Part shown: positions 16,391-64,000 of the stretch, piece after piece
Numbering within the stretch: the stretch's first letter is position 1
How the letters are laid out: every line of letters begins with the position of its first letter
From: Ascidiella aspersa
Lineage: Eukaryota
Reading direction: 5' to 3'
DNA length: 64,000 bases
Assembly: GCA_963924565.1 (NCBI GenBank)
Contig: OZ004608.1
Coordinates: 23,746,001 to 23,810,000, forward strand
Position numbers and translations under genes: made by a program
The notes under the pieces: generated by a model
What the model was told of the DNA's origin: nothing
Seen by the model: the letters and a program-made list of their open reading frames with translations, nothing else
Database searches by the model: none

Positions 16391-19300
16391 TCATGACGTC
16401 GTCAAAGTGGCGAGAGAGTTTGGCGACATGAGGTTTAGCGGTGCTCCAGTCATGTGTGACGTCAGCTGAGTGGCAACGCTGCTGACTTGACTAACTGGGA
16501 TAGGTTGACCCAGGGCGGCGGCTATTGGGCGCACGGGAACTCCGGCAAAGGTCATTTGGCCGTTAACCACAGTCGGAAACTGGAAGACGGTGCTAGATCG
16601 TAAAGAGGATGGAGAACTGACTTCACTGTCGTCATCGGATTTTTTATCGGTGCCCGGGCACTCTGAAACCCGAGCAGCTTCCTTTGAAAAGGGCATCCCA
16701 TCCGGCCTCCCAATACCTGGAGCGTTAGGCATCGGACTTAGTGTGCTCCAGAAAGTAATGCTTGGGATCACCTGAAGAACACAGCACATGTTTTTAAACC
16801 TTAATAAAGGATTTTTTAATGAATGTTTTTTTTTGGTAACATCAAATTAATTGCAATTTAGGCGACTGGGTTCTGGGTTAAGGCCATTGTTGTCCAAATA
16901 TTTGCGGTTAATAGAAAGAGCTGTACGGAACGGCAAAAATTAATACTAAAAACGCTTGATAAAAGTACGGCGTTCTTTTTGCTGAAGATTAGCGAACTAA
17001 AAGAGTATCATGGTAATATTACCATCGGCGAAGGAGTCATGATGGCGGAGTTGGGGAAGAAAGCCATAGTTGTGTCCGAAGGCGTTTTACGACTGACAGC
17101 ATCTGGTGTGTTTATAGTGCGACCATCGTGAGAGAACAGCGAAGACCCACGAAGTCCTGGGAACTGGGCGAAGAGGGCTGAGGAAACACATTCGTCGTCT
17201 ATGTCGGTTCGAGTTGACTTGCTCAAGTCGATAGGACTCGGTTTTCGATCGATTGACTTTTTACCAGTAAGCCTACGGTGCGGGAGGGATTCAATTGCCG
17301 CAGATTTGGGAGTGTCCTCTTGTTGTTCGGGGGCCGGTATGAGTTCGGGTGACTTTCGCTTTGGGGGAGTTTCGTCCGACTCTGCCTTTAAACTGTCCGT
17401 ATCTGTAAGGGTGCTAAGGACAGGAGTTAAATTGCTTTCCATAGATTGCGATTCTTCTAGCGGCGGTGTGGCCGTGCGAGGTGAGTTCGGTACCGAATTC
17501 GAGTTTTTAGGTGAAGTACACAAGTCCAAGGGGGCGTCCGAGCTGCCGCTGTGCTCTTTCAGGTGAGTGTGAGAGGTCACGTGTTCCGGTTGCTTGCCAA
17601 AGCGACGATTGGAATGCTGCTGGCGATTGTTAAGCATCATTAACAGCGGCGATTCGTCGGATTTGGCGCTTCCCGATGTTGCTGTGGTAGTGACAAGGCG
17701 TTGGTCGTGTGCTACATCGCCCGAGAACACCTCACGATCGTTATGGGTTGGGGACTTAACCGAGTTGTGCACCGAGCCGTAACCGCAATGGGAGATTGGG
17801 AAAGAGCCAGCGCCGACCAAACCGTTTCTGGCTTCCTGTTTAGGCTTTTTTAACTCTATATGGCCGGGTGAAGAGCTGTCACGTTGAGCATCGTCGCGTC
17901 TTCTTTGTGTAGGTGAGTGAAGAACGTGCTGACTGTCGTCTGGGTGGCGCCTTTTCGCAGCAGTGCCAAATTGCTGCGAGCTTGATGACGTCAAAGAATG
18001 TGGCACATGGGCAAGAAAGGCCTCGGCGAGCTTTTTCTTGTTTTGCTTAATAAGGTCCTCATGTGAAAGTTCGGGCGCGCTTTGGTGATGCCTTGTATCA
18101 GGACTCCGCCTAAAATCGTCGTTATAGCGATGTGTCTGTTGCTGGTGGTGATAGCGCGACTGAGAGTTGGGTGACTTTCGGGAAGACGAAGAAGAGGTGG
18201 AAGCCCTGCTGTTTCCATGGTATTGTGATAGTTCTCTTTGATAATGGTCTGAGTGGAAGGCTTGCGACGATGATCGCGGGTTGGAGCTGGCGTGGTTGTT
18301 CTGGTGATGTAACTGCTGTCGGTGGTTGTTGTTGCTGTTGTGTCGGTCCACGGGAGAGTTGTGGGTGTTGTGCGACTGATACTTCCTTCCCGGTAGTTGA
18401 GCACGGTACAGGTCGCATTCGCCGCCGTCAACGGGAACTGCGCAAAAACATAAACAAATATAGATGGGAAATTCACAACACATCCGTTTAAAAGGGTTTT
18501 AACGTGTCAATAGCGCAAAATATTAAACGGTTTGTAAGGTATCGGACGTACACACAAATTATAGCTAGTAGAAGCAGTAAATTGTGAATGTGTTAAGCAC
18601 CAACCTGAAACTGGAGAGTGAAAATTTCGCGAAGTCGAATCGTCTGCTTTGGACGTTGAGGCGACCACTGCGGCTGCTGCAGCTTGTCGGAATCCGGCCC
18701 AAAACGCAGCTGTGGCTGCTGCGTTCCTAGCACGCTCCTCGTCACTCATACCTGCCGCTTGCAGCGCGGCTGCTACTGCCGCCGCCGACGTGGGATCGAG
18801 GGTCATATTTGCTGCCACATCATCCATGACGTGGGTGTGCATGGAGGACGGAGAAAACATTCGCTTCTCCTCGGACGATTGATCTTGCATTCTCCAGGAG
18901 TCGGTAGAGGATGTGGAGAACCTGCCCTGGTAGTTGCGCGCCTTGTCGCCGTTCGCCGAGCGTCGGTGGTCGCCCATCAGATCGTGGTGGACGTTTTTTC
19001 GTTGAATAGGTCGGGAGTACATATCTACCTCCTTAGATGCTTCCTCCTGTTGTCGCTGTAGGTAGTAACGGTAATCGTCCTCATTCACTTCTGGTCGACT
19101 TACGACCATCGAGGGTGGTGAGCTGGAGAGGGTGGGTGATGGGGGATCCCCTTCCTCGTCATCGTCCCCGGCCATACTCGAACCCCCGTCGTTGTGCGAA
19201 AGTCTCTCCATCTTTACACGAAAGGGGATCTTTGTTTCTGTTTTGATGATTTCAGGAAAGGAAACAAACTTGTAGACGAACTTTTGGCCATTCACTTTCT

Positions 19301-22300
19301 TGATTATGTTCTGTTGGAACACAAAACAGCACGTTATCGATAACACACGTTTAATTCTATGAAATAACAATATTGCCTGTTGAGATGTAATTTATCGTAT
19401 TAGCAAGTAAAGAAGTAAATAAAAAAAGGTATTTTGTCAACGAAAACACCACACCTGCCAAAGTAATTCATATTTTGTTTAGCGCCAATTGTAAAAGTCT
19501 GTATTCGGTAAATTGTCGTTCATTTTCTGTCACTCGGTTTGAGCAGCTATGATTTTAAACAGCGCGATCGCGGTTACGGATTGACATCTGTTTGCGAACA
19601 AAAGTGACCCAGGAAGTACAAATAAGGGCAAAGCGGGATGCAAACGTAAAGCTCGAATCGTCATGGTTTGTAGGTGGGTGGAAAGGCCCGATTACGTCAC
19701 TATTTTCGTTTCCTGTATGAGCGGCGCAGAAAGCGAGTCTTGCGCCGATAAATTCAATCCGGGCACCGCCGGCGACGCGGTAATTTGCTTTGTTCAAAAT
19801 ACAAAACGGTATTGACCCCGGCCTGAGTGATCGCTGCTAGAGTTTGTGGCATGCGGAATGTCAAGCAACGCCGACGGACAGAGGCAGGCGGGGTGAAAAA
19901 ACGTACCCTCGCGATGAACGGAGATGCCGCGCAGGAAACCAGACCCGTGTGTTAGCGAATAGCTGCTACTTGTCCTTCCAATAAGAATGACGCACGACTG
20001 TCAAGTCCACTAGGGAGACGTGTAACTGAGACTTGCGATTAGCGTATTTACACAAATGGAAAGGGGTATTGGAGAAATTGATTCAGCTAAAAACTCCAAC
20101 CAAAGTAATTGATCGACAACGACGACAACGCAAGGCGGAAGTACAATAATTATCGCCAATTATGTCGATAAACGGTAACGTTTTGTGTCCATCCGCCATA
20201 ATACAACGGCCCGGTTCGGAAAAGGAACCAATTACAACGCTGAACTGGGAATTAGTCCCATCCCCTTGAACTTACGTCACCGGTCATAAAAAGACAAATG
20301 ACTGTGTTCACGACGCGACAAGCGATGGGCTTGGCCAGAAATTAACAGTGACTGCTTAACAGTACTTCGGATCGAGTGTGGTTTAAGACCTACCGGAACA
20401 AGCAACGCCTATCCACAGTATCCAGTACGTAAACGACAAAGGCTATCGACAGCGCTATTGACGATGGTGACTCGTACTTAATCCAGCAGCCGTATACTGT
20501 CATCGGTCATCGGGGCAAACTAAACTGTCGACAGCAGTAAGTCGGACGACATGACCCTGACATAAATGCGAGCCTGGCAATATTTGGTTGTCGTCACAAC
20601 CATTCTACAAATAGGCGATCTTAGATTTAAGTTGATTGTTTCTTTTCGAGGGAAATCGACAATAAACACAATCCTTTTAGCAATAATTATGTGTAAAGAG
20701 TGTGGTTCGTGTATACAAACTGCTCGTCGAATTCAATAAATAGACTGAAATATGCAACATTATTCGCATGGTGGTTAAAAGACGGAGAGTGAATTCTTTA
20801 ATGTACACCTGGAAGTGACGCGCAAGTGTGGTCCCACAATTCAGCTCGAGGGATTTCCGGTGACGTCAGACCAGTTGCTTTGCAGTGGTTTGACCAACCA
20901 TACAAACTTAATGCAGATGCAGAGCCCATATTTAATCTTCGAGCTATTGGTACCAACCAGTTAACCACGTAGTGAATGTACTCGCCAACGTTCGGATAAT
21001 GTAGTTACTTTGTGGTAGTTTTAGGTTTGTCAAGTTTCTGTTTAACACATCGCTATAGGACCATGCAAAAAAACAGCGTCATATCTAACGACATACTATC
21101 CTTGGACCAAGGGGAATTAAAATCGTGAAAACTGACAACTAAACTAGGCTATTTTATTCTAATCGTATACGTGAATTATCACTCCACTGTATCGTGATTA
21201 AAAAGCATTTAGATGTGGAACAGGCGACCGCCAGAAGCAAACCACATGGGTGTAATATTACAGGAAGCGAATGAGAAGGCATCACGTGACGACGCCGGAA
21301 ACGGTTGGGCACTCGTATGGAGTGAGAAGGGGAGTACAGGGCGATTGTGAACCATATTTTTTTATTTGCCTCATGCTCTAAAACAGCGACGTATTTCAAG
21401 TATACATTACCAGAAAATTTTACCTGGAGAGTACCAAAAAAAATGGTTGTTCCACGAGATTAATCTAACAATACTAGTAATTCAACGTTCGGTTTAAACA
21501 AATAGTGAAGGCCAAATGTAATAACACATGCGAAAATTAAGATTCTTATGCATACCTTATCGTAGTAGTAGCGCAGTGCCCGACTAAGCTTGTCGTAGTT
21601 CATGTTGGTTTTGTTTTTTCGCAAACCCCACAACCTGGCCACCTCCTCCGAATTATGCAGTTTGAACTCGCCATCGGTCGACGTCCAGCTGATCAGGTGG
21701 CTGTTCGAGTTGGGATCCATCAGTAATTCGAGTAGAAATTGCCACAATGTGACATTCATGTCCAGCACTGTAATGAAAAATACCTTTATACATCATCGAG
21801 TGTTAAACTATATTAAATGTAATAAAATGTTATGTAGCACCGCTAGCCATACGATTAAAAACGATTATATTGCATATGCGATGGGGCATTCGCCACACCG
21901 GGATTTGCAGCAGATTAGGCGAGATGCATTGCGCAGACTGCAGAGTGCACTAAGGTTAGAGTGTAGACCGTATGAGCGCAATGAGGTTAGAAAGGAAGCT
22001 AGGTTTAGACGGTTGGAACGGGAGGTGGAAAACGGACGTACCCCGACAACAAGGACGTCGCAGTGAGTACATGATCGAAATACGATCCGACTGAGGGCAA
22101 AACAGCTCCAGGGCAGAGAGCATTTTGCGACCTACGTTAGCGGCTATTTTACAAGCAATGAAAGCTTTCTAGTACATCGAGAGAGCGTTCCAAATGGGCA
22201 GGACTCCGCCTCAGGCGTCGCCCCGACAGCCGACATCCTCTACAGCAATGCAGCGATACACTACAATAAAACGTATTATAAGAGAACAGGGCGGGCGTTG

Positions 22301-40762: not shown

Positions 40763-43700
40763 TTATGCAGTGTTAATTCTATTGGTTTGTGTATTGAAAT
40801 GTAAATTATAAAAGTTTTGTGAGGTTGCCGTAGCATTGCTTTCTACACCACTGTTCATATTTTTCACATTTAATGCTGCCTTGTGAAGTTTTTCGATGTA
40901 TTCTGGTATACCTGAAATACAAATAGAACTTTAACTTGTTATTGTGACGAGTATCTTATGATTTAAAAGGTGTTAATGCCATTACCAGCTGAAACAACCC
41001 AAGAAGAAAGGGCAGCTGGAATTGAAGTCTGGGGGTCATCACAGTATGTCAACAAGTAGTCTATTCCTGGCTCATCAATGTTTGTGTGAGGTTTAATCAC
41101 CATGTCAGAGACATACAATGGAACACGAACATACCGCTTGTTTACAGCGCATTTAGGATGATCAACTGACCTTAAAATAAAAAAAATGTTTTTTGTAAAT
41201 AGCCAACCTAAATTTCGAGAATGGCAAAAATTAGATTTAAAATACCTATTCAACTCCAGGTTTGCTGGGAGTATTTTGGCCAATTGTTGTACAATATTTA
41301 ATTTAAGAATTAAAGTAGACGGTCATTACACTAGAAAAAAAAAACGAATCAACCCACAGTCTGACAATTTTGTTTATTATGTTTGGTCCAATTTATTGTG
41401 GATTGTTTTAAGTTTTATTCAATCGTGATGTTAATATATATAGAAACAGTGGTGGACCCGAGCGCTGCAGCATACTGTGTTTGACATGTTTTATAAGAAT
41501 GTGTGCAACTCAATTTAAGGTTTAAAATGGAAATTGACCGAAAACAATTTATAAATCTAACAACTAGTCGCACAATTTGTTTTTAAATCTATTAAGTATA
41601 ATAACAGTTTTAAATACCAAAAGTGAAATATATCTTGCATGATGTATAAAGTCATACTTTCGGTGGGCATTTAATGGCGTTATATTTAGCGGAAGATTCC
41701 CTTGTGAAAAAAAAGTCTTGAGTCTATGGTCACTACATTTGACACTTACAGCACAGACCACTTGAAAATTCCTTACACAGCCACACAATGTTTTGTAATA
41801 AAGCAAATCTATTAAGGTTGTTTCCATTATAATAAGACACAATATTTTTAGATAGCTTTAAGGGATATCTATTTAGCATAATTTGTCGGTCAGCTGGTAT
41901 GTTGACAAGTCGCAGGGGAGAGTGAGCTTTAAATATATAACCACAAAATTAAAAAAGAGGCTCATTCCAAACAAAAAGTAGAAGGAAATTCCCTTGGTAT
42001 GAGTGAAGTGCTTAGCTAAGTGTAGTCACACATTTCTTCATTTTAAATATAACTTACATTGGATATTTGCTGTATTACAATTTTGCAATCTACATTGCTT
42101 TAACAAAACAGTCTGCTTCAAAGTCTTAACAGCTTGACAAAAACGGCGAAGCAAGTTTTTTTTACAAAAAAATGGCTATTGTCATTTCACTATGCAAATT
42201 GTTGTATTTATTGCAACAGTCAATTTTTTTTTTAATTTCTGGACAATGCCAGTAGTCCAAGTATTTTATCATCTTAAGTTTAAGGTCACAAATTATAAAA
42301 TTAGTTAATACCCTATTAAACCTGAGCAATGCCAGGTATTTCTTACATCAAACACTATTTTTAAATCAGATGTAAAACTATTTTTTAAGCATAAACATAC
42401 CTTGCCAGTATTGCAAGAACATTAGCATCTTTGTAAATCTGAATTAAAACAAAACTTGTTAAATGTATGTAAATTTATTTAACCATATTCATGTGTTTTA
42501 ATATCTACAAAACATAAAACTTGTAAAAGTTCAAAAAAAAACTGTACTTTAAGTTGAATTTGCATAAAGTTTAAAGGCCATTTCATTTGACACAATAGGT
42601 TTTATGACATCACAATCCAGGCTTATAACGAAAATCATCAACAAAAAATTTAATAATAATATTTTTGTGAGAAAATGCACATTGTGTAAACAATTTTACA
42701 ACAATGGCGAAGAAAGCCAAAAGGAAAAGTACAAAGAAAAAGCAACCAAAACTTAAAAAGAGTAATGAGGACTATTTTGTAAGCAACTTTCTTAGGCAGC
42801 CAGGTAAGACAAGATCTGGAATAAGATACTCAAGGATTACAAACAGTAAAGCTTCGGCTAAATTAATTTTTGGTTCTCTTTTGTCTTTGACAAGTTTATC
42901 TAATAAGCCAACAAAGTTAGAGACTGCGAAGGACCAGTGCAGCTGTAAGCAATGCAAAGATAACAGAAGCAAAACTGTCACCAGCAACCATAGTGGACTG
43001 AGTCTTATGCTAAAAAGTGAAGGGAATTCTAATTCTTTGCCAAATCTTGCCAAATCAATGCCAAGTGCAGTTTTACCTAAACACAGACAGAGTGCAGACA
43101 GCAAGTATTGTGATTGCTATGAATGTACAGGCCTGATCGACGTAAAAGATGTGCCAAGCCAACAAAAGGGAATGTTACAACAAAGCATGGGGGCCATATC
43201 TTGTGAAGATAACAACAACTATGGTTTGTCTGGTGACCAGCAATATATTTCAAAAAACTTATTGACAAGAAATAGCTCAGATATGAAAATGCACAGTGTA
43301 ACAAAACTTAAGCAACCTACAAGCAACCATCAAAAACGCCAGAAAAAGCCTAAAGAGAGCAGCACAAAAGTCCAAAGACTGAAACACCCACTTGAAAAAT
43401 GCAAACCTAGAAGATACAAAAAGAAAGTCAAAATGGTACAAACAAATATGAAACAGTCCCACAAGGGGAAAACAAGGAAAGGAAAGCCTACTAAATCACT
43501 CCTAAAGTTAGTTTTAAAGAAAAAATCATCAATTAGACAAAAAAATGGAAAGGTAAGCCCACAAAAACCAAAGGAACAACAGGCCTGCACATGTTGCCAG
43601 CGATTTCAAAACATAATTCGGCAAATTGGCAAGGCACATAATTCACAAGTTAGTTTAAATAAAAGAAGATCAAAGTCTGCTGGAAATATAGCAAATCAGT

Positions 43701-46700
43701 ACCTACAATGCACCAAATCTGGTTGTAGTGAAACACCATTTGCCAGTGCAGGATATAACCATATGGACAAGACAAAGAATATTAAGCGTAGTCAATCCGT
43801 TAAAAAGATGGAACTCAATGAAAGTAGAAATGTTACTCCAGTATTAACTCGGTCCATTCAACATTTAAAACAAACTGCTATTAGCAAAAAAAGTCAACAT
43901 AAGAAAAAACAAAAAAACTACACAAGGGTAAAAAAAAAGCTGGGTGCCAAGCAACTGCAGCTGAAACCCCAAAAGGTAGGGAATATAAAGTCCACCAAAC
44001 GACAAACAGTGAAGTGGGTTTTGCTCACAGACAAGTTAATCAAAGCCTTGAAAGACAAAGCAAAACAAACTGCTCAACAAAACAAAGCCAAACAAAACAA
44101 AGAAAGAGGTATTAAAGAGCAAATGAAACAAGATATAGCACCCACACCAAGCTGGGGGTATGGATCAAAAAGTAGCCATAAAAGAGAGTCTAGCAGTAAC
44201 AAGTATCTCCGGAGTTCTTTGTCAACAACATTACAGGTTGTTAACAGTACACGGCAACAAAATTCTGGCACAAATGACATTCCTCGCACACCTTTTCCCA
44301 GTTCGAAAATGCCAACATACATTGCAATGGTAAAAACAGCTATTCGTGATTTGACACCATATAGGATGACTGGAAAGGAAGCCATTTCCAAGTAACTATA
44401 AATTATGTTTAGGAAATTTCTATTTTTAAAGCTAATGAATAAAAATATATATTCAACAGGTATATTCAAATAAGGTACCATATTCAAAATGATGTTTTGC
44501 TGAGATACATTTTGAAATGGATGGTTGATATGAAAATAACCAAATTGAAAAATGGGAATTATTACTTCAGTGGAAAAAGGTAAGTGCGGTTGTAAATTCC
44601 ATTAATTATTCGTTAAAAAAACGTTAAAAAAAACACTTTTTGTTATATATTTAGGCTAATTAAAAAACACACAGTAGCAGTTTTAAGCAAGTCTCAGAAG
44701 AAAAGAAAGAAGAAAAAGAGGTAAGAACACAGTAAAGGTTTTTGTTCTTAATAGCAAACTTAAAATATTTTTTACTTCCAGAAGAAAAGCAAAAAAGAAG
44801 CGAAAGTCTTCAAAAGTAAGTAAACTGACCAAGGTAGGTAAACCAATTCACAACGGCTGTTTCTTTAAACTCTTAGCAAGGTGGGTAATGCATAACTTTA
44901 CAAAACTCAAAACGAGGGGCGTGCAAATCACTAAATTTTTAAACCTTTGAACATAAACAATGTGTTTTTGTGATATATATTTGTATTTCATACCACCAAG
45001 AATAAACAGCCTTATCATTTACAAGGCTAAAAATAGGATTAGAATTGATATAACAGTTTAACTGTCTTAATAGTAAATCCTGTATGTAGAAAAAGTCAAA
45101 ACGAAAAAAAGGAAAGGGAAAGAAAAAGAAAAGAAAGTGCACATGTTCACAGCAGAAAAATGCAACTAAAAACAGAGTGAAACTTCGTTCCCATTATATA
45201 AGAAAGCATGGAAAAATTTACAAACAAGATGAATATGTTTAAATACCAACCTCTTGGCGTCTAATGTAAATGTACTCTCTTGCATTGAACGGATACTGAA
45301 AACAAATAAAAAACAAATAAGTTACATTGGATGTTTTACGGGTGGCACCAAATGTCATAACTACTGACAAAGATTGAAATTCAACTCAGATCAGGTTTAG
45401 TACACAAATGTGTTGTGATGATGCCACCAGACCTATTTTAAAATGGTAAAGATTAATAGGTTCTAGAAGTTTAGCACCTAGCCCACAATATTAATTTGCT
45501 TATAAGTTGAGATAATTTATTCAAGGAACGTTGAGATACCGAATGTCACTGCAGGCCTGATTTTTTAGCTTCATTGCTTCCACGAAAATGTGTATAGATA
45601 GACTGAAGTTACTCCCTAAACTTTATGGTCAATCTTGGTGTATTTACAAATTCTCAAAAATAACTTACCGGAAAATATGCAAGCCAGCGAAGAACTTGTT
45701 CACCAGTACTTTTGTTTTCATCAACAATATCAATATCAAGAGCAAGATTATCCCATTTTTTGCGATATTCAACGTCTGATTGAACCGCAAAAAATTGTCT
45801 TGCAGTTACATCAAAAAATCTTCCAAACACTACATGTAATTTGGAAGTTTTAAAATTTAAAATATTACACATATGTTTACCTTAATTTATTGTGATATTA
45901 TAAAAGTTTATTTAAAATTTTGGCAATGTTTAGTTTTTACTTCATTTGATCAAGTTAAGATTTAGGGATATCAAACAAGAGAATCATTATTTGTTACTTT
46001 TGATTACAATCGCATACCAGTAAGCAATTAAATTAGGCAGGCAAAATAACATTGTCCGGATTTATGCAAGAAGTGTGTACAGCTAACTCAGGGGTGGACC
46101 CCTTGAGAATATGTGAAGGTATAATTTTAAAAATCAAATATTTCAGTACCACAACTTTATTGCAAAGGCGGTACAGATTGGACAGAACACGGAAAATGGC
46201 ATCAACTAAATTAGGCGGAAAATAATATGATCAGGAAGAGAGTTACTATACAAATGTTTTGCTCATATTTTAAAGATGGATGCATTAGATTTAATTGGAA
46301 ATATGAATTAAGTTTGCAAAACATTTGTTTAAAAGAGTACCATAGCGCACATTGCACCCTTTGTCTAAGTTAGAAGTGCAAGCATATTAACTAAGTCACA
46401 CCTAGCTGTTTTTTATTTAGTTGCCTTACAAAAAAGTTAGGATAGAGTTGAAGATGCGTTGTTTAATTAGCACAAAAAATGAAAAAAAATATTTTAAGAA
46501 GACTAAGCCGAATTAGCTTCCTTGGTGGGCCGTTTTTGTTATGAATAATAACACAGCTAACTTATTTAGTGAAATTTGTACAATGCATGCCAATCTAGGG
46601 TTGTCCAACATAATGTTTGCATTCCACCACAAAGCATCAGATGAAAAATAAAACCTACCTTTATACTGCATGTATTCAGTGTTCTTATACGGAAGTTTCC

Positions 46701-50290: not shown

Positions 50291-53200
50291 CTCTACAGAG
50301 TCTACGTCGTTCGACAATTTAAAGATTTTTCTGCGGAAGACTTTGTAATAAAGTTTGGAATTGATGTATATGAATTAGAAACAAAGCAAGATTTTTCGTA
50401 ATAGAATTATATCGACCTGTGGCCTACTATATTATTGTCCGCGAACATTTTTTAAACCCAATTTTGTCTCTTTACTAAAGGTTTGGCGCCTATACTCTAG
50501 TCTACAGATGGTATGTTTATATTTAGAAACAAGAGTAAAAATTAGCACAAAAGCGCTAAAAAATTGCAGTTGTACTGAAAAGATTACAACAAGCGAGCTA
50601 AATCATATTGCGTGCAAAGTCTACGAAAGAATATTCGTGCGAAATTGTTTTTCTTTTATCTGCGTAAAAATTCCAAAAAAGTATACATATGACCTGGTTC
50701 CTCCTATACCCCATTATTCGCCACAAAATTTTAAAAGTTTAAACATCACATGAGGCAGTTTCTTATCTCCAAAGGCAATTGATGTCAATGCTATTTTTTA
50801 CAGATCAAAGTAATTATAAAAGCATCTTAGCTATCAACTCCAAAAACAACTAGGCTACTGTAAATAAGTATAACGATAAGGAGGATTATTTTAGACAAGA
50901 CATGACGTCAATTAAATGTCATACGCTATGTGTCATTCAATAAATTTCCTTGGTTGCCTTATGTTGAAGTTAAATTTGTTTTTGATGAAGATCCTTATTG
51001 TCAGTATGCTGCATGGGCTGGAACAATCCCCCATCCGCTAAAACCATCGATATTAGTATTACCTTTTTCTGTCTATCAATTCTGCTTATCCGCAGATAAT
51101 CATGGTCATGCTATGAGTCAAGTGTGCTATTTAAAACCTATGACGTCAAAATGGCAAAGGAAAAATTAAAAATCCATAGTACCGTACAACAAAAGTTGAT
51201 TTTAATGTCACTGTAAAATGACTAACTTATCACGCACCAAACGCTACCTAACAATTATTTCGTATTGCACGAACTTCTTTAAGAATTTTAATGAATAATA
51301 TCACTGATCACCATGTTAAGCACACTAAGGTTCTTGGGTACACCAGACTATTCTTGCCATCCTTGACTTGGAAAGAGTTTGCAAAATATCGTGCTTATTG
51401 CAACGATTTTAATAGTAAGCAATGCGGGTTTATTGGGCTAATTCGACGCGGTTTTAGCGTGACCGTCAAAATAAATTAAAGCAATCGCTTTCGTAAAAAT
51501 AAAATTAAATATTGCAAATTTAGTATTGGCCTTACAACTCGATGCATTAGAAAACTTAATCTGATACTATGTCAAATTTCTATTTTCCGAAAGTGTATAG
51601 CCACGTAGAGCAACTTTAAGGACAATATACGTTGGCCTCTTTATTAGGCTAAAAACCTATTGAAAACAATTAGGCACCGCGAATAGGTATCACGCCGGTC
51701 GAACAATTACTGCAATCACATGAACCGTATCCTTGACATACTTTTATTGGGCGTCAGAAAACCTACGCGACTTCGTACAACCAAATTAACTTTACCCGAA
51801 ATATGTGAAATATAAAGTGATAGCTAGTTATTTGGGCCAAAGTTAATATATATTTTACAGTGTGTATAACTACGCAAAATTTAAACGCTTTGCAAAATAT
51901 AGCATTTATTGCAACGGTTTAAACAGTAAGCAATTTTTTTTTTAAACGGGACTTTTTTGCTTACGTTGGACGCAGTATGATGCCAAGATTACGGATCGTT
52001 TGTTAGTGGTTCCCTATGGATATATGTCACGGGTTTTCGTTAAGTAAAAGGTGTGCGATGGGTTCATCCAATCGTTGTGTATTCAGTCGTTCAATTTTAA
52101 CATGTTGGGATGTTTGGGTGTTTATTATGAACTGACTTGCATCATTAACGATAATTGACTTGCATCATTAACGACCTGGACTGGGACTTGACTTGGACTT
52201 TCGTTATTTTGCAAATGTCACTGTGCTGGAATTTAAGCCATTTCGCAAATGACTTGAGTTGGACTTGAGTCATTTTGAAATGACTTGTTTATAATACTCT
52301 CGCCACATAACATGCGGCTTCCGCAAACTTACATAACTATTACTACTATTAAAAAGTAGCCGTATTGGGAAGCTGCTGTGTAGAAAATTGCACTTTGTCC
52401 AGCGCTAAGACTCACATAGAAAAAGTGAAAATTTTACACGGCACCTTCAAGCTGAACACATCGAAAGGCCACATAATGCATAATATACTCCTTACTTTTT
52501 TTCCATTTCCATGGTTAAAATTAGCAAAAAATAAGTTTTTTCCAGCAGGGAAATAAAAAGTTTGGACGAGCGGCCCGATCGCGGGCTAATAAAAAAATAT
52601 GTATTTTGATTTCATCACTTAAAAATAAGACCGCGGGCCAAAAAATACAGTCCGCACATTTGGCCCGCGGCCCTGTAGCCTAGTTCAATCACGCTGTTAT
52701 AAACTATTCTGGGATGTAATTTGTTATACTAGGGGTCGGTAACCCTGCTAGCTACAAGAACCATTTGAATAACGATATTCATTTACTACAAAATAAAACT
52801 TTGGTATACATTTATAATTTTGGCTTACTTTAGTTTCACACTACGAGCTACAAATCTGAAGTAAATCAATACCCTTTGTTTTTTTGTTTTTGTTAGTGTT
52901 TTAATTTAATTTAACTCAATTCAGCATTGTGACGTCATAATTTGTGTATGACTAAACTGACACCGACCCGATTGAAACCCTTAACTTAGGGGTCGTGAAA
53001 GTGTGTTACGAAAAGGCGCAAAATTATGTAATGAAGGCGTAAATCGTGACTTTACATGATAGTATCCGCTTATAAGGTAAATGATACTACAGTGGTAAAA
53101 TCTTGTAAAAAATAACCATGATTGGGGATATTGTGGCAAGGCAAATAAACAAAAAAGAGTCCACATACGAGATAGTTTATATACTTTGAAGGCATTTTGC

Positions 53201-54208
53201 CTACTTAACATTAATGCATATTTTATTCTGATTACCAAACACCTCACAAGGGAGCGGCTGATTTACAGCCATTTGTGAAAATTCTCAATTTGCCTCCTGG
53301 CTTTTTAAATCTGTGAACCACACGTCGGCTGCGTTGAAAACGTGCGTAGGCGTAGACAGTGTAGTTCAAGTCTGTGAAAGAATTAGACGACCTTTCCTTA
53401 TCACGACACTGAGCTAAATAAAAACCTTAAGAAATACGAGCGCACGCTCCCTCAAACGAGTCTTGACAACATTAACAAACTGTTAGTCACAGTCTTACAA
53501 CATAATGTCAGGCGCACAATATAACTGAATTAGATGACAGTGCTGTTTGATGAATCAGATAAAACCAAGCTTAAGCATACGCTTCCAAAGCCTATATTTA
53601 ATGAGTATGTAAAAGCAGCGGTTTTGTTCGATCTTCGCTTCGTTGGATTTTAATCTAGTCAGAAACTATACATTATAACAGTGAGAGTCGTGGAATGCAT
53701 TTTGAAGCTTGCGTTTCAACTAAACTTGATTGATAATATTTGTGCATTTGTTTCAGCAACAGTTCGTAAAAAAGATTAGGCTAGAAGCGCAGAGTGTGCT
53801 GTAGGTTGTTGCTTGCCGGTAATATTTATCCAGTCTCATGCTAACTTCGGTAACCTGTGTTTCAGTTGCTCGTTCAATTGCCATTAAAATACAGATAGTC
53901 TTAAACGTTGCTTACACGCTAAACGTGAAAATTTCCGTTTTTTAAAGTTCACTGGTTGGTCTGGTATAACATGAAACGACAGTGCGTGAAGGAAAGAAGA
54001 CACAGACACGCATTCTGGCGCATTGTGCGGGACGTTACGCAGAATAAAAGGGTAAATACGTGACGTAGGGCGCAAGCATGCGTCATGGAATAAAATTTTT
54101 CGATTAAAATACTTAAGTCTCTCCTAGTATAAATATCGTTTCAGTTGCTGATTTAACAATTAAAAGGAATCAAAAGTGTCGGTTGTGGTTACTGTTTTTA
54201 CCTTGGAA

Positions 54209-57200
54209 ATGGCTGCAAAGCAGGATTGGTTGTTGATAGCTGTGGCTGCATGCATCGTATTATTGGGAACAATGTCATTACAAGTATATGGTAAGATAGA
54301 TATGTACATGATATTTGGTTTCGTTCGTAGTTTACCTGGAACTAGAAAACATTCGAATAAGACAAAGACACCAGTATTAAGTACTGCTTTTGCTGTGATG
54401 AACTGGCATTTGTGAAATTTCGGCTAAAAGTCGCCCTAAATTAAAGTGAAAATTGTAAAAAAAGACTTGTAGGTCAACCACGCCCACCATAAATGAAACA
54501 ATTAATAGAGTTGGTCAACCCTTGTTATATTTGGAATGGTAATATCGACTATGATCCAGTGATCAATTTCTGGAATAGATGTTAATCTTAACCGTAATTT
54601 TTGTATGATTTGATTCTTCCTTAATCAAAAATTGTTTTGCCTTTACCTTAATTTAGCATTTTTGGGAAAAAGGACTAATTCAGAAAATAATATATCTTGA
54701 TTAAATTATGCGTTACAGTCAAAGTCTCGCACGTGGTCGTGAGGGCACATACTCCACTTAAATATAATCGCAGTTTCTACTTTAAAAAATTTTCGCGAGA
54801 CAGACCAAAACCAAAAACGGCCACTGGCGAATGAATCGTTTCTAAGGCCAAGGCCGGTTGACACGTCGTGTTGAGTGTCGCACATGACTCCTCCCTACGT
54901 TCATACACCGGCGAAACTGGATTTTCCACCAAGCTGGTGCAAAGATACGCCCGATTGCTTATCTGATGACAATACTGCGAACACGCCGATAGCATTGGGA
55001 TATTGGCCTGGTCGCAAAACAACATCTGTTAGCGTATAGTCTACGTTTTACTTTTTCATTGCACAGGATCGGCTAAGTTTGCCCGACACTCGAATTTTGT
55101 ACTATTCAAAACACACCAAATTTATAAGAATAGCCTACTGAAAGACAACCCTTTACTAGTGGTCATCAAATCGAATTATTTTATGTTTGCTTTATCCTCA
55201 AAAGGTCCACTAAAATATAATTTGAAAGAATACTCTTGTAAGTTTTGTCTTTTTGTAAATCGTTAGGGCTCGTTTCTTAAGCCGTGACAGTGACAGTTGT
55301 TTTCGATCGTGTCATGTTATGTTAAAACCCTAAACAGTGGTATTTTATCATTAACTACGAAATATATTAGCGCAAATAATTGTTTAGGTGTGATTTAGTG
55401 TTTGCGTTTTTTTGTATATCACTGCATAATTAAAAATCTACACCAGCGGTTTGTACAGTATTTAATGACGGGCGAAATTTTAAAATGCTGACGCGTCCAC
55501 TAAAAATAATAAAATGTTGAACTTGAGTTAATAAGAATTTCATTTAGTGGAAATCTGTTGTAACTGTATAATTACGAGTAGCACGAAAGCAATTCCACAA
55601 GGTTTATTTCCATTTAATATTTCGCGTGCCCTATGAAGCCAAACTCTTCTTAGGGCACGAAACATTAAATGGAAATAAACTGAATAATGCCAGTATCACA
55701 AAATACTTAAACAAACAATATGTCAGTATTTTTTACACAGCTCTCAGCAGTAGACTTAATTTATTGGTTCTACCCTAGTTTCGTTGGTGTGCTCTATAAA
55801 GCGAAGTCGAAAATAAAAAAAAGCCGATAATGCCGTATAAAACACGATATTCATTATAATGGCGATTTAGCATCTTGATAAAGGCTGTATGGGTTTACTA
55901 AAATAGCTGTACCGGGTCGGACTCATACACTGTGATCTACACTATACAAAATGATTATGTCATAATCCTATATATTCGATTTTTTAGCTTTTATTTCCGA
56001 ATAACAGTTTTTGACTAACAATTACTTAATGGTGTGCAGACGATATTTGCATTTTGGTTAAATAGTGAAAGGAACGCAATACCACGGTAGTTAACATCAC
56101 AGACAGAATAAAGTTCAGGGTAGCTGTATAATTGTATTTAAACAATTCCGCAACTTAACAAAATTTGAGGGAAGAAATTAGCCTGGGGAGTATTGTACAA
56201 CACGTCATAAGCTCATCTCGTGAGTTGCATCTTTATTTGATGGGTGCGACAATACGTGCACATTCATCTTGACGGTATGCGTTAAGAAATCGTGTTTCCA
56301 ACTGCGGGGTGGTTGGTTTTAGGTTGCTCCATTCGGGGGCTGCTATTTGAGTACAAACTATTACTTTCGGTCGCCAAAAGGAGGCTGTTTACGCTTTGCT
56401 CTATCCATAATAGCTGCAGGAAAACATAACTTCGGATCATCGTTTTGTAGGTTGTCGCTCTGAAGTTTGCAGAAGACGTAGGTTCGTGACACAGTCAGAA
56501 ACAACTCTTCAACTGACTGGATGCTCAGGACAAACAAAACCCTGGCTGAGACAGCTTGCTTTCTGTTTAAACAAAGGAACAGCAGAAATTGCCATAAGCA
56601 TGAAAATTTGGTACCAGACTACGTATCAGGAGTGTTTGGAGGTGCGTGGTTGCAATGCTGAATACAAAAATAATATTTCCAACAAACATACTAGTAATGA
56701 AACGCCTTAAAACACTTTTTAACGCGATTGTCGCTTAACGCCGTGACTCTTTCCAGAAAGAAATTTCCGCCAAGTTTATCTCGTTAAGCAATTTGTTCAC
56801 GCTTTGCAGGAATTTTTATATCTTTCTATTTTACCCAAAACTTAAAAAAAAAAACCCACTGTAAGGTGTTTTCAAGGTTATTGTCAATAACGCCACGTTT
56901 CGTAACTTTGTGACGTCACGATTTTACGTTGTATTGTAACGCGAGCTTTGAACTTTTGTTCATGACCCCCCCCCCCCCCCCCCCCAAACAAAAATCCTTG
57001 ATCCGTCCTTGATAAGCATGGCCCTTCCGTTAGTTCTAGCATAAAGTCTGAAAATCGGTCGATTACGATTACCCACCTCCCTTTCACTTAGCAATTATCC
57101 AGGGAAGTTGCACTTGAAAATAATTACGCGATTATGAGATTGACACCAATATCCTGAGAATTGGCACTTATCGCGTTTCCTAAGCGTCAGCTAACAATTT

Positions 57201-60073
57201 TAAAATGTTTTATAAAATGGCAGTTATGCTTAGTTCTGCGCCGACTTATGTTGTTAATCTGGTCTATGAGCGTTACTGCTTAAAATCCACATGTAAGCTG
57301 AAGTATTTAGGGAACACACAATAAAACCTAAAAAGCAACAATACCAAAAGCACCAAAATCTATAAAACCATAGTATTAAGTCCAGCGGCATAATATGCCA
57401 AATACACAGTAATTTCCAGTACAGCATAATATCAAAATCGTCTGAATAAGACCTAAATCTATCGGAACAAGGCCTAAATTCATCTGAATAAGGCCTAAAT
57501 TCATCGGAATAAGTCCTAAATTCATCGGAATAATGCCTAAATTCATCGGAATAAGTCTTAAATTCATCGGAATAAGGCCTAAATTCATCGGAATAAGGCC
57601 TAAATTCATCGGAATAAGTCCTGAATTCTTGGGAATAAGGCCTAAAATGCATCAGAGGAAGGCCTAAATGGACAAAATAATCCCCGAACCTATGGGTAGA
57701 GGGTATGGAACGATCGGGGGCCATCGGTCTAGCATCAGCCCTTTTGGTGACTACGTTTGGACGCCCTAGTCTGACCGGCGCCGTCAGGGCGCCGCTGTTT
57801 TGGCACCGGATCTTTGGTCTCGTTTGGGGTTATTGATGGGAAATGGGTTAGGTTAGAAAATGGGTTAGTGTTGAAATTATTAGGAGAGTTATTGATGTAC
57901 TTAGGGGCGAGGTTTGGGGTTGGTTAAAGTGTTGTTTAGGCCTGATTTAGACGGTACTAATACCATTAGGTATTAGTCCTATTTTGGCCTTATTCCGAAT
58001 TGTATTTTATTCTGACGTTGGTGTTGTTCTTGTCTCGGTCTTATGGCTGGAGTCCGTATTTAGGCTAGCAATGAAATCCTCTTTTTGATTTTCGCTTTGT
58101 CTGCATCTTGTTAGATAATTGTCTATATGTCACTCTAACAAAAGGCACAGGATTTCTCAAACCAGCGGCGGTCTTTCTTGGGCCACAAACATGTATTATT
58201 TTAATCCTTATCCAGTAAAACTATACAACGTTTAATTTTCCATATGACTTCAGAAAACTTACTTGTGACTCTCAATGATGTATTTTCCAAAAGCCAAGCA
58301 AGGGAAGTCACAAAGTGTTGCGGGCCCATGACTCATGAAAGGTTGAGAACCACTTGATTAAATTTTATTGTTTCTTATTATTGGAAAGTTGTAATACGGG
58401 GACCTAATTCGTTAATAATAGTTAAAAAAAAGGTGTTTATAATAAGCTGGTTATCCAATTGTGAATGACTTGCAACCACTAGCGGTTTTAATCGGTGGAT
58501 ACCCTGACAACACCGTGTGTTTGAATGCTGCATAATGCCTTACGGCTACGTGAACTATGTTTTATACAAATGCGCACAATTATTCTCGGAAAAATCATCA
58601 AAATGTAAACATTTGGGTGTTTCTCATCTTGAACTATTCTCGGTATTCAATGTGTAATTCATAGCTTATGTTGTCTTTTTTTAATGCTAGGCTTAATAAC
58701 TTAAATTTGAACTCTTCTTGTTTCTTACCAACAACTTAGCTTCGGTTGTCGTTTTAGAATGACATACTCACAACACGGAAAAATAGTGTTTTGAGTCAAA
58801 TAATGCTACTTTAAAGAATTACCTAAAAACAAAAAAAAACACCCACATTGTGTTCACCTCTTCGGTTTAACGTTTTGAAACCTTTATAGAGTTGTTCCAC
58901 TGTAAAACGCGGAACGAAGGACTTGGATCAAATCGAGGAGTGCGTATTGTGCTTTACAACAGAACTTCCGCAAAGTGGACTTCTGCAATCGCACAATGTG
59001 TCACGGAATGTTCTTGATAGTTGTATAAGACAATATGTGTATGCATCTCTTAGCAACGGTAAGCTTTGTCTTTAATTTTGTTTAACATTACATTTCAGTA
59101 AAAATATTTTAAATTGTATTCTATTACAATTTTTTGTGCGAAATTCGCGTTTTATGTTGTGAAACAAACTAATCTGAAAATTGCTATCTACACATTTCTT
59201 CACATTCTTTAGTATTTTCTGTGTTGTAAAACTGTCGTCTGATGATTTAGAATTGCCTAAATTCGAAGCTGTTACCAAATCACGGGGCAGGATTACATTG
59301 CCGGTGCGACGACCAGCCAATGACTGGTGGTCACTTACTGTCAAGCTGCCGTGCAAACCGCCATTATTCCAGGTACAAAGTTGTACAATGGCCCAGCCAA
59401 CATAATGTTAACTTGCCAATTTGTTTGCAAATTAAAAGGCCTATAGCTTTTAAACCCCTAGGAAAATACGTTAAAACGCAATGAATGTGTTTTGTTAATA
59501 GCTTTTACATTTGACTTTAGCGCACCTTTCGTTGTTCAATAGTTTTGGAACGCGTACTGCATCAACTCGTTCGCGGAAGACAGCAAAGCTCGTGACTTTG
59601 TCCTGGCGCAAAACAAACTCGTATTTAACAACGAAATCATGTTCCTGGCTAAATTCAGTGACGCGTGTCGTTTCAACATCGAAGACGTACAGATTATATG
59701 GAGTGAATCGGTACCTGCTTTCGGTAAGAACATTTCGCATTTTAAAGTGTTTGGCGGCCCTTATAGACACTTTTCTGTATTTACGTACAGTACATCTTAG
59801 TTTTCAAATTTTCTTCGAGACGATAAAATGGTTATTAGTAAGAACCGCTAAAATAAAGGAATAAAGTTATTTTTTATAATCTCGTTGTCTTTATCGAGCC
59901 TTACACTTTTGTTTAGCAATATATGCCTAAATTTAATTAAAAGGTGTCACTTAATTACTTTTACAGCGTTTGTTTTTTTTGGCGATGTGGTAGATCAAAT
60001 CACTACCGGTATCACAAAATCACAAGTTGTAGCCTATATACCAGAGTTAGAAAAGGGGTTTAATATATCATAA
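54209..60073 (+). CDS. Secreted Cys-containing protein with a CBM2-like domain (at least 283 aa; 3' end uncertain)
   Basis: Exons 54209-54290 (signal peptide MAAKQDWLLIAVAACIVLLGTMSLQVYG), 56451-56641, 58890-59058, 59251-59372, 59543-59723, 59967-60073; all GT-AG and phase-consistent. RRRR site after the signal peptide; RGRITLPV..DWWSLTVKLP..FQFWNA..FVLAQNK..IMFLAKF. Confidence 0.75.
55602..55680. repeat. Near-perfect 79-nt inverted repeat (hairpin)
   Basis: GTTTATTTCCATTTAATATTTCGCGTGCCCTATGAAG - 7 nt loop - CTTCTTAGGGCACGAAACATTAAATGGAAATAAAC. Confidence 0.85.
57358..58045 (+). repeat. Dispersed repeat, copy 2, with an expanded 21-bp minisatellite
   Basis: Colinear with 34068-34615. Confidence 0.8.
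57443..57668 (+). repeat. 21-bp minisatellite, ~10.5 copies of GGAATAAGGCCTAAATTCATC
   Basis: Directly visible head-to-tail units with no spacers. Confidence 0.95.
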
Positions 60074-61798
60074 CTAATTTAGGCATATACAATAGAAAGG
60101 CCCATTGGGTTGAAACCATAACAAGGATTTTCCCTGTTTTTAACTGAAGCATGTATTTTAGTTCTCAAATGGCAGTAGGCCCCGCAATGGTGTGGTCGCG
60201 CCTAAAGTTTCGTCGGGTGAGAATTCTACTGGGTCGCTTTAGAATTTATAGAGCGATAAATCAAAATAGATCAAAACCTTCAAATTACAGACAAAACAGA
60301 TAATTGTAAACAAAAAAAAGTTTTATTAAGAAAGCTTGAAAGTGTTACGCTGACAAACATCGCATGTAAAAACTCCAGTAAACACTTTTCACACATGAAG
60401 ATCGACGTAATTTCACAAGCAAGGCACTAGCATAGATTAAAAAGTTTTTTAACTATGGGTTGGAACTGAAAAACCGAAAATACTCAACTATAGCAAATTA
60501 TCCGTTAGGTTGTCGCATATGTTTAGTTAGGTATATCCAATCGAAATAAGTTTTATAATAGACTACCGAATACTGTTGTATTTTTTAACCATCACGTATT
60601 ATTTTTGTGATAAAAGGAATAAGTTTACCATTGAATGTGCCTTGGACTTTTTACACTTAGAAATACCTTTAAATCAGTGTTGTCAAGATGAAAATTGAAG
60701 TTAAATCTGAATCGCACGTGAAAAATACCACAATTAGCTCCATGCATTTCAATTTTAAAACGCTTAAAACCTACTCCACAGTTTCTGCGGCATAGCCTAA
60801 TAAGTGAATCTGTGTTTTTTTATAAATTAAACCTACGGCGCGAGGAATAAGCCTATGTACCCCGAGTTTCCCATACGTTACACCAGCGGATGCTCTTCAG
60901 ACCTTAGTGTGCCAATTTCACCTGATTTTTTCACCGTGCACCTGATTTGCCATACGTTCCAGACTCACTCCGTGGTGGAATTATATAATAATAATAAATC
61001 ACAATTAGTATCAAGCAATTACAAGTACAAAGATCTTTGTATGTTGTCCTGAGAATATAAATTCCCAAAATGTAAGCTATATGTTTATCTTCGGGAGTGC
61101 TGAGTAACCTTAGCAATTATTGGGGTAGAAAGAAACGGTTTGTTGTAGGTGGCAAACAAAGATTATACAATCTTGGTTGTTGTATGATTCAAAAATTACA
61201 AAATATTGTTACTTGGTGCTTCAAGAGCTCACGCTGAAGCAATGAATCTCAAACTGTCTGCCGCGTAACCTTTCGTTATTTAAAAAAATGTCTTATTTGT
61301 ACTACAAATGAGCATGCAGCCATGGAGACATGTAAAACTTGAATACACACTATCCCATTAGAAAACTGATAAATTGATAATATTTACCTCAGGTTATTGT
61401 TAATTGTCATGCACAAATATGCAACTGAAATCGTTTTTCAAATACATAAGGCAGGATGGCCTGGTATAATCAGAACAGTTTTGGAACATTTGAACAATTT
61501 GTTTACCCCTTCCGGATACCTACAAACATTATTTCACCGAAATGCCGCTCTGGAACTTTCCGGCTTACTTTCACCACTGAACTAAACCATGAGAGCAATA
61601 AATTGCCGGTAGTAAAAATGTCGCAATTCGATGATCTAACAGGACAGTTACGACTTGCAGTTCCTAAAAGAAAGCGATTTGGAAAAATATATATATCGGT
61701 TAGCATTTAACGTGCGCTCTGGTCAAACTGTGTACCCAGATAAGTAAATTTTCATCGTTGTGCTTTGTGGTGTACTTCGCAAAAAAAATCCACCGCAG

Positions 61799-63547
61799 TT
61801 GTCGAGATCGTACCAGCTTATTTGCGTTGTTTCGAAAATCGTCTTGCGGTCTATATTGTGGCCCGCATTAGCGTGGTGGGATGGCTCAGCCCGGGGGGCA
61901 CGTCATCCAAACGGTATCCCGTGCTACCGGCCGGTGAATTGCACCGGTCTTAACAACCTGGCAATTGAAAAGATCATTATATTAAAAATCATTTTACACA
62001 AACCCAGCTTAAGTGTAACTTGAAAAGAAGGTACGAAATCATTTGGGGGCGTTATATGCAATTCTGAATTTTGGATAAACGAGTTACTAATAATGCTCAA
62101 TCCTGTTTATTTGTACTCGCTAAGCTCACTTGTAGTTGTGTGAACTTGAATTTGTTTTTTGAGTAACAAATATTAGGCAGTGAAATTGGGATGGTGAAAG
62201 TTCGGACAAACTGATCGGATATTATTACTCAACCTTTTAAAAAAATATTTAACCTTAAACGATTTCGGTGATCATATGAAATGTCATTCTATTCCAATTG
62301 GAAAACTCCAATCCGCTCAAACGATAACTTATTAATATACGGTGGTTATTTGTATCACTGTTAGTATACATCTCGGTATAAAAAAAGGGGGCTTTCGTTT
62401 TAATAAACGTTTAAAGTTAAACTATTACTATAAGGCAGGGGTGTCCAACATGAGGCACGCGTGCCAAATTTCGATCTAATAAAAATAGCACGCATACAGC
62501 CAATTGTCAAAAAAGCTAAATTTGTTGTTTATTCACAATACAAAACAATCCCAGCAATTACGACAACAAACAATTACTTCTGATATTATAACACTATAAT
62601 GAACTTATTTTTTGTATAAAAGCGCTTTTAACATTAGAAAAAAAATAGTTGCTAAACTTTGGCACGGGAAGAAGTTATAAGATAAAAATTGGCACGTCGG
62701 CATGTTTGAGTTGGACACTCCTGCTAAAAGGTATATTAGTAATTAAACGAATGTCTTAGAATTAGCAAATAACTAACTTACATTTTATCACTAGCCCTTC
62801 CCCAGTTATCAAGTTTTGGAAACAGTTTTCCACCCCGAGGTGACCAAAAAGGGCACATATTCTTTGACACGAAGTCATTAGCCAAATTGCAAATGACTGA
62901 TGGGTCTATTCCGGCTGAAATAAGAACGCAAGATAACGGACCAAGGAGAAAACGTGAACTGAGCCAAACCACTGTAAATGAAGTGGCCGCCTCCTTTAGC
63001 AGGCTTGGACTTATCATGCCTTGTACCATCGCCAGTTTTAAAGTAAGCTGCATTCTGTCGAAATTATTAAAAAAATATTACGTATAAGATTGTCCAATGA
63101 GCTCCTATATGACTAGCCAATTTCTTTTAATACAATGCAAAAACTTTTCTTTTCCGACTCAGAGAAAAAATACATTGGTTTACAACTTTTATATTTGGTG
63201 TTGTATTGGCAAAAAAGAGTATTTTTATTAAAAGAGCAAAGCGTTATTTAGTGATGCCGTTGGTGCAACTCCTTTTTATGTAGAACCTATTCTAATCCGT
63301 TTCGTTGTATGTTTTACTAAGATGACAGACACGCTGGGTTTGCCTGTGAACGTTATGTCAAACAAGAAAAAACATCTTGTTGACACAAGGAATTTCTGGA
63401 GGATGGAAGATAATAAACTTGAACTATTACGAGACATCTCACTGCTCAACTTTACTCTAAACTTTGGTTCGAACGGGTGTTTCTTTAATCCATCAGAAGT
63501 CGAGGTTGTAGTTAACCCTCCAAATGGTTGGTTAGACTCAGATCAAT
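61799..63547 (+). CDS. Exons encoding a second, diverged copy of the CBM2-like module (same gene or tandem paralog; continues beyond the window)
   Basis: Exons 61799-61933 (phase 1-1, less certain), 62795-63042 (1-0), 63322-63547 (0-1). RLGLIMPCTIASFK| and GCFFNPSEVEVV align with SLTVKLPCKPPLFQ| and ACRFNIEDVQII, with identical intron phases. Confidence 0.7.
62436..62723. mobile_element. hAT MITE with GGCACG subterminal repeats
   Basis: TIRs CAGGGGTGTCCAAC / GTTGGACACTCCTG; TSD ctataagg/ctaaaagg. Confidence 0.85.
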
Positions 63548-64000
63548 GTGAGTAAAGTTTATATTGGCCTTTTAAGCCTATTCCTGAAAATGATTAATAG
63601 CATTTCGGTATTTTTCAATTAGAGAGACAAGTTGGTCGTTAAAAATCTGTGGTGGGTCAGTGGTTCGCCATCCCTGGCCTATATCATCGAAAGTATAACG
63701 GCCCTATTCAAATTACAACTTTGCTGACTTCGATAAAATATATATCCATTTTTTCAACTATTTTTCATAAATAGTTTATATAATATGATAACATACTAGC
63801 AACAGGGTGACCCGCTTTTTGCGCGAATCTATAATGTTTTCGCAATAGGCTATTGCCGTTGTATTGTGTGTCGTCACACATTTTTAAATACAATTAACAT
63901 ATACAGTTAAATTTTGGCGCTTCGGGCTACATTGTTAGGCCTACGTGGTTTCTGCGCAGCCTTACAACTGTGGAGTCCGCAGCCTTACAAACTGTGAATG

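Follow-up and report, generated by a model that had tools for sequence, protein, structure and literature searches.

The window, a 64,000-nucleotide stretch of Ascidiella aspersa DNA, carries the greater part of a single-copy, nine-exon gene on the + strand, which continues into the neighbouring stretch (L002) and encodes a predicted secreted protein with two tandem beta-sandwich modules. We read this protein, with a probability of about 0.45, as a furin-processed extracellular-matrix adaptor made of degenerate CBM2 modules, one that would not bind crystalline cellulose with high affinity. A matrix linker is likelier than a strong cellulose binder because most of the residues that would grip the sugar are gone. 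The domain order is predicted signal peptide, RRRR site, Cys-rich helical domain, two tandem beta-sandwiches (modules 1 and 2) and a C-terminal LU/three-finger domain. The architecture is undescribed, but its parts are known.

All eight exon joints of the gene are supported by RNA. Four public runs were compared with positions 53000–64000 of the window and then again with L002, giving six GT..AG joints from 54290 to 63322 and two more on L002. Each of the eight was present in X3 contigs and six were also found in the raw stranded reads of X5 (2–6 reads each, with 6% of the run read), whereas the joints either side of exon 3 came from X3 only. The GT..AG intron between exons 4 and 5 was spanned by two raw X5 reads and an X3 contig. 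For the sandwich modules, three protein queries against the species' own genome yielded this locus alone. The spliced frame encodes 495 amino acids (aa), or 494 aa when an alternative exon 8 acceptor is used. This acceptor is a NAGNAG tandem (L002:3075 and 3078), at which the X3 contig takes the first site and the X5 reads the second, altering one or two residues ahead of the LU domain. A stop codon at 63553–63555 was rejected as the end of the protein, as it falls in intron 7. Intron phases run 1,0,1,0,1,0,1,0 along the gene, and therefore each domain is a two-exon unit that opens at a phase-1 border.

The peptide that the sequence-only reading had quoted is real and is encoded by exons 4 and 5, joined across an intron seen in RNA reads and a contig. 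The signal peptide, RRRR site and Cys-rich region (exons 2 and 3) that it had listed lie upstream and are spliced to this peptide (Table 1). Its description of the protein held up to module 1, but did not extend to module 2, furin-type site 2 or the LU domain, which occupy four more exons.

Table 1. Coordinates of the gene and its features (window positions unless marked L002).
Feature	Position	Strand	Remarks
Exon 1, coding part	54209..54290	+	Predicted signal peptide aa 1–28, then phase-1 intron; splice to 56451 seen in reads (X5) and a contig (X3)
Exon 2	56451..56641	+	Short two-Cys pro-peptide, RRRR, beginning of Cys-rich helical domain
Furin-type site 1, RRRR, aa 35–38	56471..56482	+	Read from sequence
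Exon 3	58890..59058	+	Remainder of Cys-rich helical domain, to aa 147; X3-contig joints; matches orthologues
Exon 4	59251..59372	+	First half of module 1 (predicted CBM2 fold); W173, core W174, C182
Phase-0 intron between exons 4 and 5	59373..59542	+	15 codons past core Trp; RNA-confirmed
Exon 5	59543..59723	+	Second half of module 1; W190 (59546–59548, triad position 2), C194, C230, invariant W241
Exon 6	62795..63042	+	Opening strands of module 2, helical insert that carries furin-type site 2, strand bearing C325
Furin-type site 2, RRKR, aa 299–302	62944..62955	+	In low-confidence loop within module 2
Phase-0 intron between exons 6 and 7	63043..63321	+	Six codons past C325
Exon 7	63322..63547	+	Second half of module 2; C384, W401
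Intron 7	63548..64000	+	Continues beyond window end
Exons 8–9 (LU domain, stop)	L002:3075/3078–3190 and 4721–4873	+	Up to 3.4 kb beyond window end

Other features of the region were also recorded. Introns 2 and 5 contain high-copy repeats (57310–58055, which includes a short tandem array, and about 62440–62725) that are read on both strands and have a very high depth in contigs. In intron 1, an AP2-type motif (54820) was dismissed as chance level, with nine in the window against 5.1 expected and 6 of 100 shuffles as high. The 3′ end of the gene is overlapped by a convergent transcript (L002:5260–5800, − strand), and an exon at L002:9665–10000 (−) matches the PNGase F C-terminal family (PF09113, E 1e-23). 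Long open frames of 496, 294, 574 and 260 aa at 17008–19391 (−), 42671–44395 (+) and 8225–9007 (+) had no Pfam family near cut-off.

The signal peptide is predicted from a hydropathy peak only, and is followed by a 10-residue peptide with two Cys that ends in RRRR. The helical Cys-rich domain reaches aa 145, module 1 spans aa 146–245 and module 2 about aa 250–402. Conservation is highest in module 1, with 32 of 101 positions invariant across seven rows compared with 14 of 119 in the N-terminal part. Helices in the N-terminal domain were seen in a first, low-confidence model only, in which the domain gave no clear structural match; PDB sequence matches of this domain to Rab35 (E about 0.007) were taken as chance. 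The 495-aa transcript is fully accounted for and contains no GH9 domain, nor do the orthologues contain any GH family. These data agree with the earlier proposal of a secreted-type protein with no hydrolase domain.

Orthologues with the same architecture occur in Phallusia mammillata (60% identity over nearly the whole length), Ciona intestinalis (LOC100177472; XP_002131928.1, F6SS18; 50%) and Clavelina lepadiformis (48%), and the C. savignyi counterpart is a fragment (58%). All named relatives are ascidian, and these orthologues are annotated as ‘uncharacterized’ and have no Pfam domain. We found no mention of the identifier LOC100177472 in a literature search on that identifier, although the protein may be listed in expression or tunic-proteome tables or under KH/KY gene ids, and it is not described in the accessible parts of PMC3390340, PMC10334666, PMC8704543, PMC9617304, PMC11943626 and PMC10986139. 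Literature searches on the ascidian tunic proteome with cellulose binding found nothing, and those on CBM2 and Ciona tunic cellulose found nothing on this protein by title. In a library of 1.84 billion sequences, 29 of 150 hits match the non-LU part of the protein and the remaining 121 the LU domain. A tree of 18 rows separated the clade of the window's protein (11 rows) from a divergent clade (7 rows) with support of 99/97 and long branches. The metagenome locus L127 has the introns of the window's gene and locus L128 is a compact gene with other introns, a pattern that would fit a larvacean. Three relatives (P0011, P0012 and P0178) form a clade of 391–395 aa that stops before the LU domain. 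In P0012 and P0178, C34, C52 and C194 are lost together, which hints at a disulfide network.

To assess the fold, the Phallusia orthologue was modelled, standing in for the window's own spliced protein. The first full-length model was poor (pLDDT 56), yet CBM2 chains matched to module 1 already accounted for five of the six top VIA rows. An AlphaFold model of the two modules, based on 28 rows, reached pLDDT 86.4 and pTM 0.84. In this model, module 1 matched 2xbd best (Z 8.0, rmsd 2.4, 83/87 residues), with further CBM2 matches to 5dhe (Z 7.1), 6f7e (6.4), 3ndy (6.3) and 6bt9 (5.9); all five chains were also retrieved by sequence with a bacterial CBM2. CBM2 chains made up five of the nine module 1 rows within the top 11 of the search, and unrelated sandwiches in the same search reached Z 6.4 (BBS7) and 6.0 (delta-COP). 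In another structure search, 1e5b (Z 7.6) and 5dhd (7.4) scored above the best unrelated row (6.2), and 1exg reached only Z 5.2, with the first model. The AlphaFold and Foldseek check suggested with the sequence-only reading was carried out on the orthologue; CBM2 chains topped the structure search, and Foldseek returned no match at E ≤ 0.001 with either model. The CBM2-like fold that had been proposed is supported by the predicted model of module 1, a consistent call but one that depends on middling Z-scores.

The best structural match of module 2 was a sandwich of an archaeal chitinase (5xsv, 320–424; Z 7.0–7.5), which was not returned by the CBM2 sequence search. When module 1 was compared with module 2 without its insert, the two matched with a probability of 80% and E 1.4e-5 (0 of 60 column shuffles). 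In both modules, a Cys pair lies in matching places and a phase-0 intron follows the first Cys (C182 or C325) by six codons. By these comparisons, modules 1 and 2 are an internal duplication.

Type A CBM2 bind via three conserved aromatic residues, W17, W54 and W72 of Cex, according to the available part of a recent report (10.64898/2026.10.13.758739). In a local alignment to bacterial CBM2, W174 of module 1 takes the place of the core Trp and W190, 16 residues away, that of the second Trp of the triad. The core Trp of CBM2 is buried. At the W190 position, the 19 family rows have Trp (8), Phe (2) or Arg, Lys, Gln or Glu (9); the residue is polar in all seven rows of the divergent clade, and the window's clade has an aromatic there in 10 of its 11 rows. 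No row has Trp at triad positions 1 and 3 (aa 153–158 and 213–216), as located by extending a 38-column alignment, and module 2 keeps neither the core nor the surface Trp. The planar aromatic triad is thus eroded. The statement that only one canonical surface Trp is kept proved correct (W190, at triad position 2), but cellulose or chitin binding, which had been proposed alongside it, is not supported by this pattern of residues. The cysteines are also arranged differently, as bacterial CBM2 have terminal Cys (in 120 and 119 of 121 rows) that link the first strand to the last, whereas the conserved Cys of module 1 are internal (182, 194 and 230). Compared with characterised CBM2 (PF00553; C. 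fimi Xyn XBD1, 2xbd/1e5b; Cex, 1exg; T. kodakarensis ChBD, 5dhe/5dhd), the protein shares the predicted fold of module 1 and two Trp in register. It differs in having no Pfam score, no Trp at triad positions 1 and 3, another disulfide, no catalytic partner and a second copy that is split by a furin-type loop.

Other aromatic residues have been retained, namely W173 (16/16 rows), W241 (19/19) and an aromatic at Y193 (16/20), and these could form a new sugar-binding face. In the CBM2 topology, W173 and Y193 would fall on the opposite sheet, where a further domain may pack against them. These residues bear on an alternative, in which the protein is a true cellulose- or chitin-binding structural component of the tunic, house or feeding mucus that binds via W190 and a remodelled surface (W173, Y193 and W241), as in amoebozoan wall lectins. 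The CBM2-like fold and ancestry, the signal peptide, the missing hydrolase, the solely ascidian named relatives, the aromatic W190 position of the window's clade and the three strongly kept aromatics would all be expected of such a protein. In the part of the source available, Acanthamoeba Luke lectins are secreted, enzyme-free tandem CBM2-like jelly rolls that bind Avicel, and cellulose binding by Luke-2 depends on aromatic arrays (10.1101/2024.02.02.578540), which counts against this alternative. From what the available text describes, Luke lectins and Dictyostelium wall proteins have in common with our protein a signal peptide, tandem CBM2-like jelly rolls, no enzyme and a cellulose-making organism, and by this layout the Luke lectins are the nearest analogue so far described. 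However, each Luke domain is described there with three aromatics, a start-to-end disulfide and Ser-rich spacers; our protein lacks the three aromatics and the Ser/Thr-rich spacers, its modules are predicted to be packed together, and it adds furin-type sites as well as helical and LU domains. Since the layout is shared but the triad is not, we class it neither as a functional CBM2 nor as a Luke lectin. Two triad positions without Trp, a third that is polar in 9 of 19 rows and two kept aromatics that may face another domain make a tunic lectin of this kind doubtful.

The C-terminal domain (91 aa, 14 Cys) has no membrane or GPI tail. As in LU domains, it is about 90 aa long, Cys-rich and ends with a CC..CN motif. 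A profile of six relatives found LYPD1 (6zss, E 8.8e-7) and LYPD6 (E 0.009–0.02) among solved structures; exon 8 alone gave sub-threshold scores for PF00087 (E 0.0013) and PF00021 (E 0.0077). Compared with LYPD1 and LYPD6, the LU domain here has 14 Cys, no GPI tail and a position after two CBM2-fold modules. The same 91 aa are matched by the N-terminal domain of ascidian LU-Sushi-vWA proteins (P0007–P0009), and among the library hits this LU type is also found on many unrelated large proteins. Six other places on contigs C3 and C6 of the species' own genome match the second half of the domain (E ≤ 0.01), and therefore this LU type is a multi-copy module in the genome.

Two furin-type sites recur in the family. 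The first, R-x-[RK]-R near the N-terminus, is present in eight of nine full-start rows and missing in P0011. The second is found as R-x-[RK]-R in that region of 14 rows, is absent from P0011, P0012 and P0178, and is reduced to KKR in P0148. In the model, RRKR falls in the sole low-confidence loop, between strands two and three of module 2. Two conserved sites, an LU domain whose nearest solved structures are LYPD1 and LYPD6, the lack of a GPI or membrane tail, and a single-copy gene with low read depth in X5, the one raw RNA run, could all be accommodated by a latent signalling protein. A furin cut would then unmask or position the LU domain, which would modulate a receptor in the manner of vertebrate LYPD1 or LYPD6, and the sandwiches would serve as prodomain or carrier. 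We judge this unlikely. Site 2 lies inside module 2, and therefore a cut there would not release the LU domain; P0011, P0012 and P0178 have neither LU domain nor site 2, so that the sandwich core persists without LU; and the presence of this LU type on many unrelated large proteins also counts against this reading.

The origin of the modules was traced by comparison with the GH9 cellulase genes of the same genome, in which we found 75 GH9 exon matches, 12 of them first exons. In 17 stretches upstream of GH9 genes, there were 10 CBM2-like first halves. As a set, these GH9-side modules matched 121 bacterial CBM2, gathered with a pattern in which the first Trp of the triad is fixed, with a probability of 96% and E 2.4e-9. 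The genome holds at least 12 GH9 genes, and upstream of several of them lie divergent CBM2 modules that escape Pfam CBM_2 (L131–L147; contigs C1–C4, C6 and C7). In three of the 10 first halves, a phase-0 intron with both its ends lies 15 codons past the core Trp, exactly as in the window. The other first halves have a good donor there (two), a weak donor there (one), donors elsewhere (three) or no intron there (one). In the three clean cases, phase-1 acceptors lie upstream in all and phase-1 donors downstream in two; these GH9-side introns are predicted from sequence, whereas those of the window are RNA-confirmed. The odds of sharing intron position and phase by chance are about 1 in 300 for one fixed position. 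Our literature search on the intron structure of animal GH9 cellulase CBM2 found nothing. The protein and the GH9-linked CBM2 (L132–L142) are alike as two-exon units with phase-1 borders and this phase-0 intron, but several of the latter retain aromatic triad residues and adjoin a hydrolase, and our protein has neither.

Direct sequence comparisons were mixed. Module 1 and the GH9-side module of L139 share 12 of 32 residues without gaps (0 of 1000 shuffles), in a match that was picked by eye and is the one of four tunicate CBM2 sequences to beat chance pairwise. Against L139, the six relatives nearest to the window's protein scored above chance as well (no more than 3 of 300 shuffles), and the divergent relatives mostly fail. 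The module 1 profile matched the tunicate CBM2 set marginally (E 0.019, 0 of 60 shuffles; score 17.2 against 15.4 reversed) and the 121 bacterial CBM2 not significantly (E 0.14, 2 of 60 shuffles). A global profile alignment of module 1 to CBM2 failed, and module 2 gave nothing significant against the bacterial or tunicate CBM2 profiles. By sequence, no CBM2 was returned by PDB searches, by ESM Atlas features for module 1 or by PF00553 over the species' own genome. Pfam CBM_2 gave no row for six window exon frames or 28 relatives, a weak test, as it also misses three of three real tunicate CBM2 pieces while scoring a bacterial control.

Together, the fold, the intron and the L139 match make it very probable that module 1 descends from a CBM2, and the likely source of both central modules is the CBM2 of a tunicate GH9 cellulase. 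It is highly improbable that they are generic Ig-like sandwiches whose resemblance to CBM2 is convergent, with a chance motif match: the Cys pair differs from the terminal pair of CBM2, no relative scanned has a Pfam CBM match, Foldseek is silent and 125 CBM2 sequences score no better than decoys with the module 1 HMM, but CBM2 chains head three structure searches, intron position and phase are common to the GH9-linked CBM2, the L139 match exists and Pfam is blind to genuine tunicate modules as well.

For the preferred reading, a furin-processed matrix adaptor, we propose that exon shuffling brought a CBM2 unit of two exons, bordered in phase 1, into the gene, where it was then duplicated. Furin would cut the protein at aa 38 and aa 302, giving pieces of about 30 and 22 kDa (unglycosylated) that would be held by strand complementation. 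The cleaved halves are predicted to stay joined because the first two strands of module 2 belong to the N-terminal piece, and a disulfide may additionally hold the pro-peptide in place. A protein partner would be bound by the LU domain. The role of the tandem sandwich would be that of a rigid spacer or a unit that binds proteins, and any glycan contact, via W190, would be weak at most. A bolder scenario goes further. Here, tunicates would have taken a CBM2 exon pair from their own GH9 cellulases and, after duplication, turned it into a dedicated organiser of the cellulose tunic or house that has no enzyme activity and is activated by furin. A rebuilt aromatic face would grip cellulose, and the LU domain would link it to cells or matrix proteins. 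Such an animal counterpart of the amoebozoan cellulose-wall lectins is an improbable outcome on present evidence.

In the accessible part of one source, tunicates are the only animals that make cellulose (PMC10334666), and work on their cellulose handling, in the parts of the literature available, is mainly concerned with the enzymes CesA and GH6. A conserved, single-copy, predicted secreted protein probably derived from cellulase binding modules is a candidate non-enzymatic cellulose organiser. Even without sugar binding, an unannotated tunicate family gains a fold and a probable origin, and would provide an example of a CBM2 unit that has been shuffled, duplicated and split by a processing loop.
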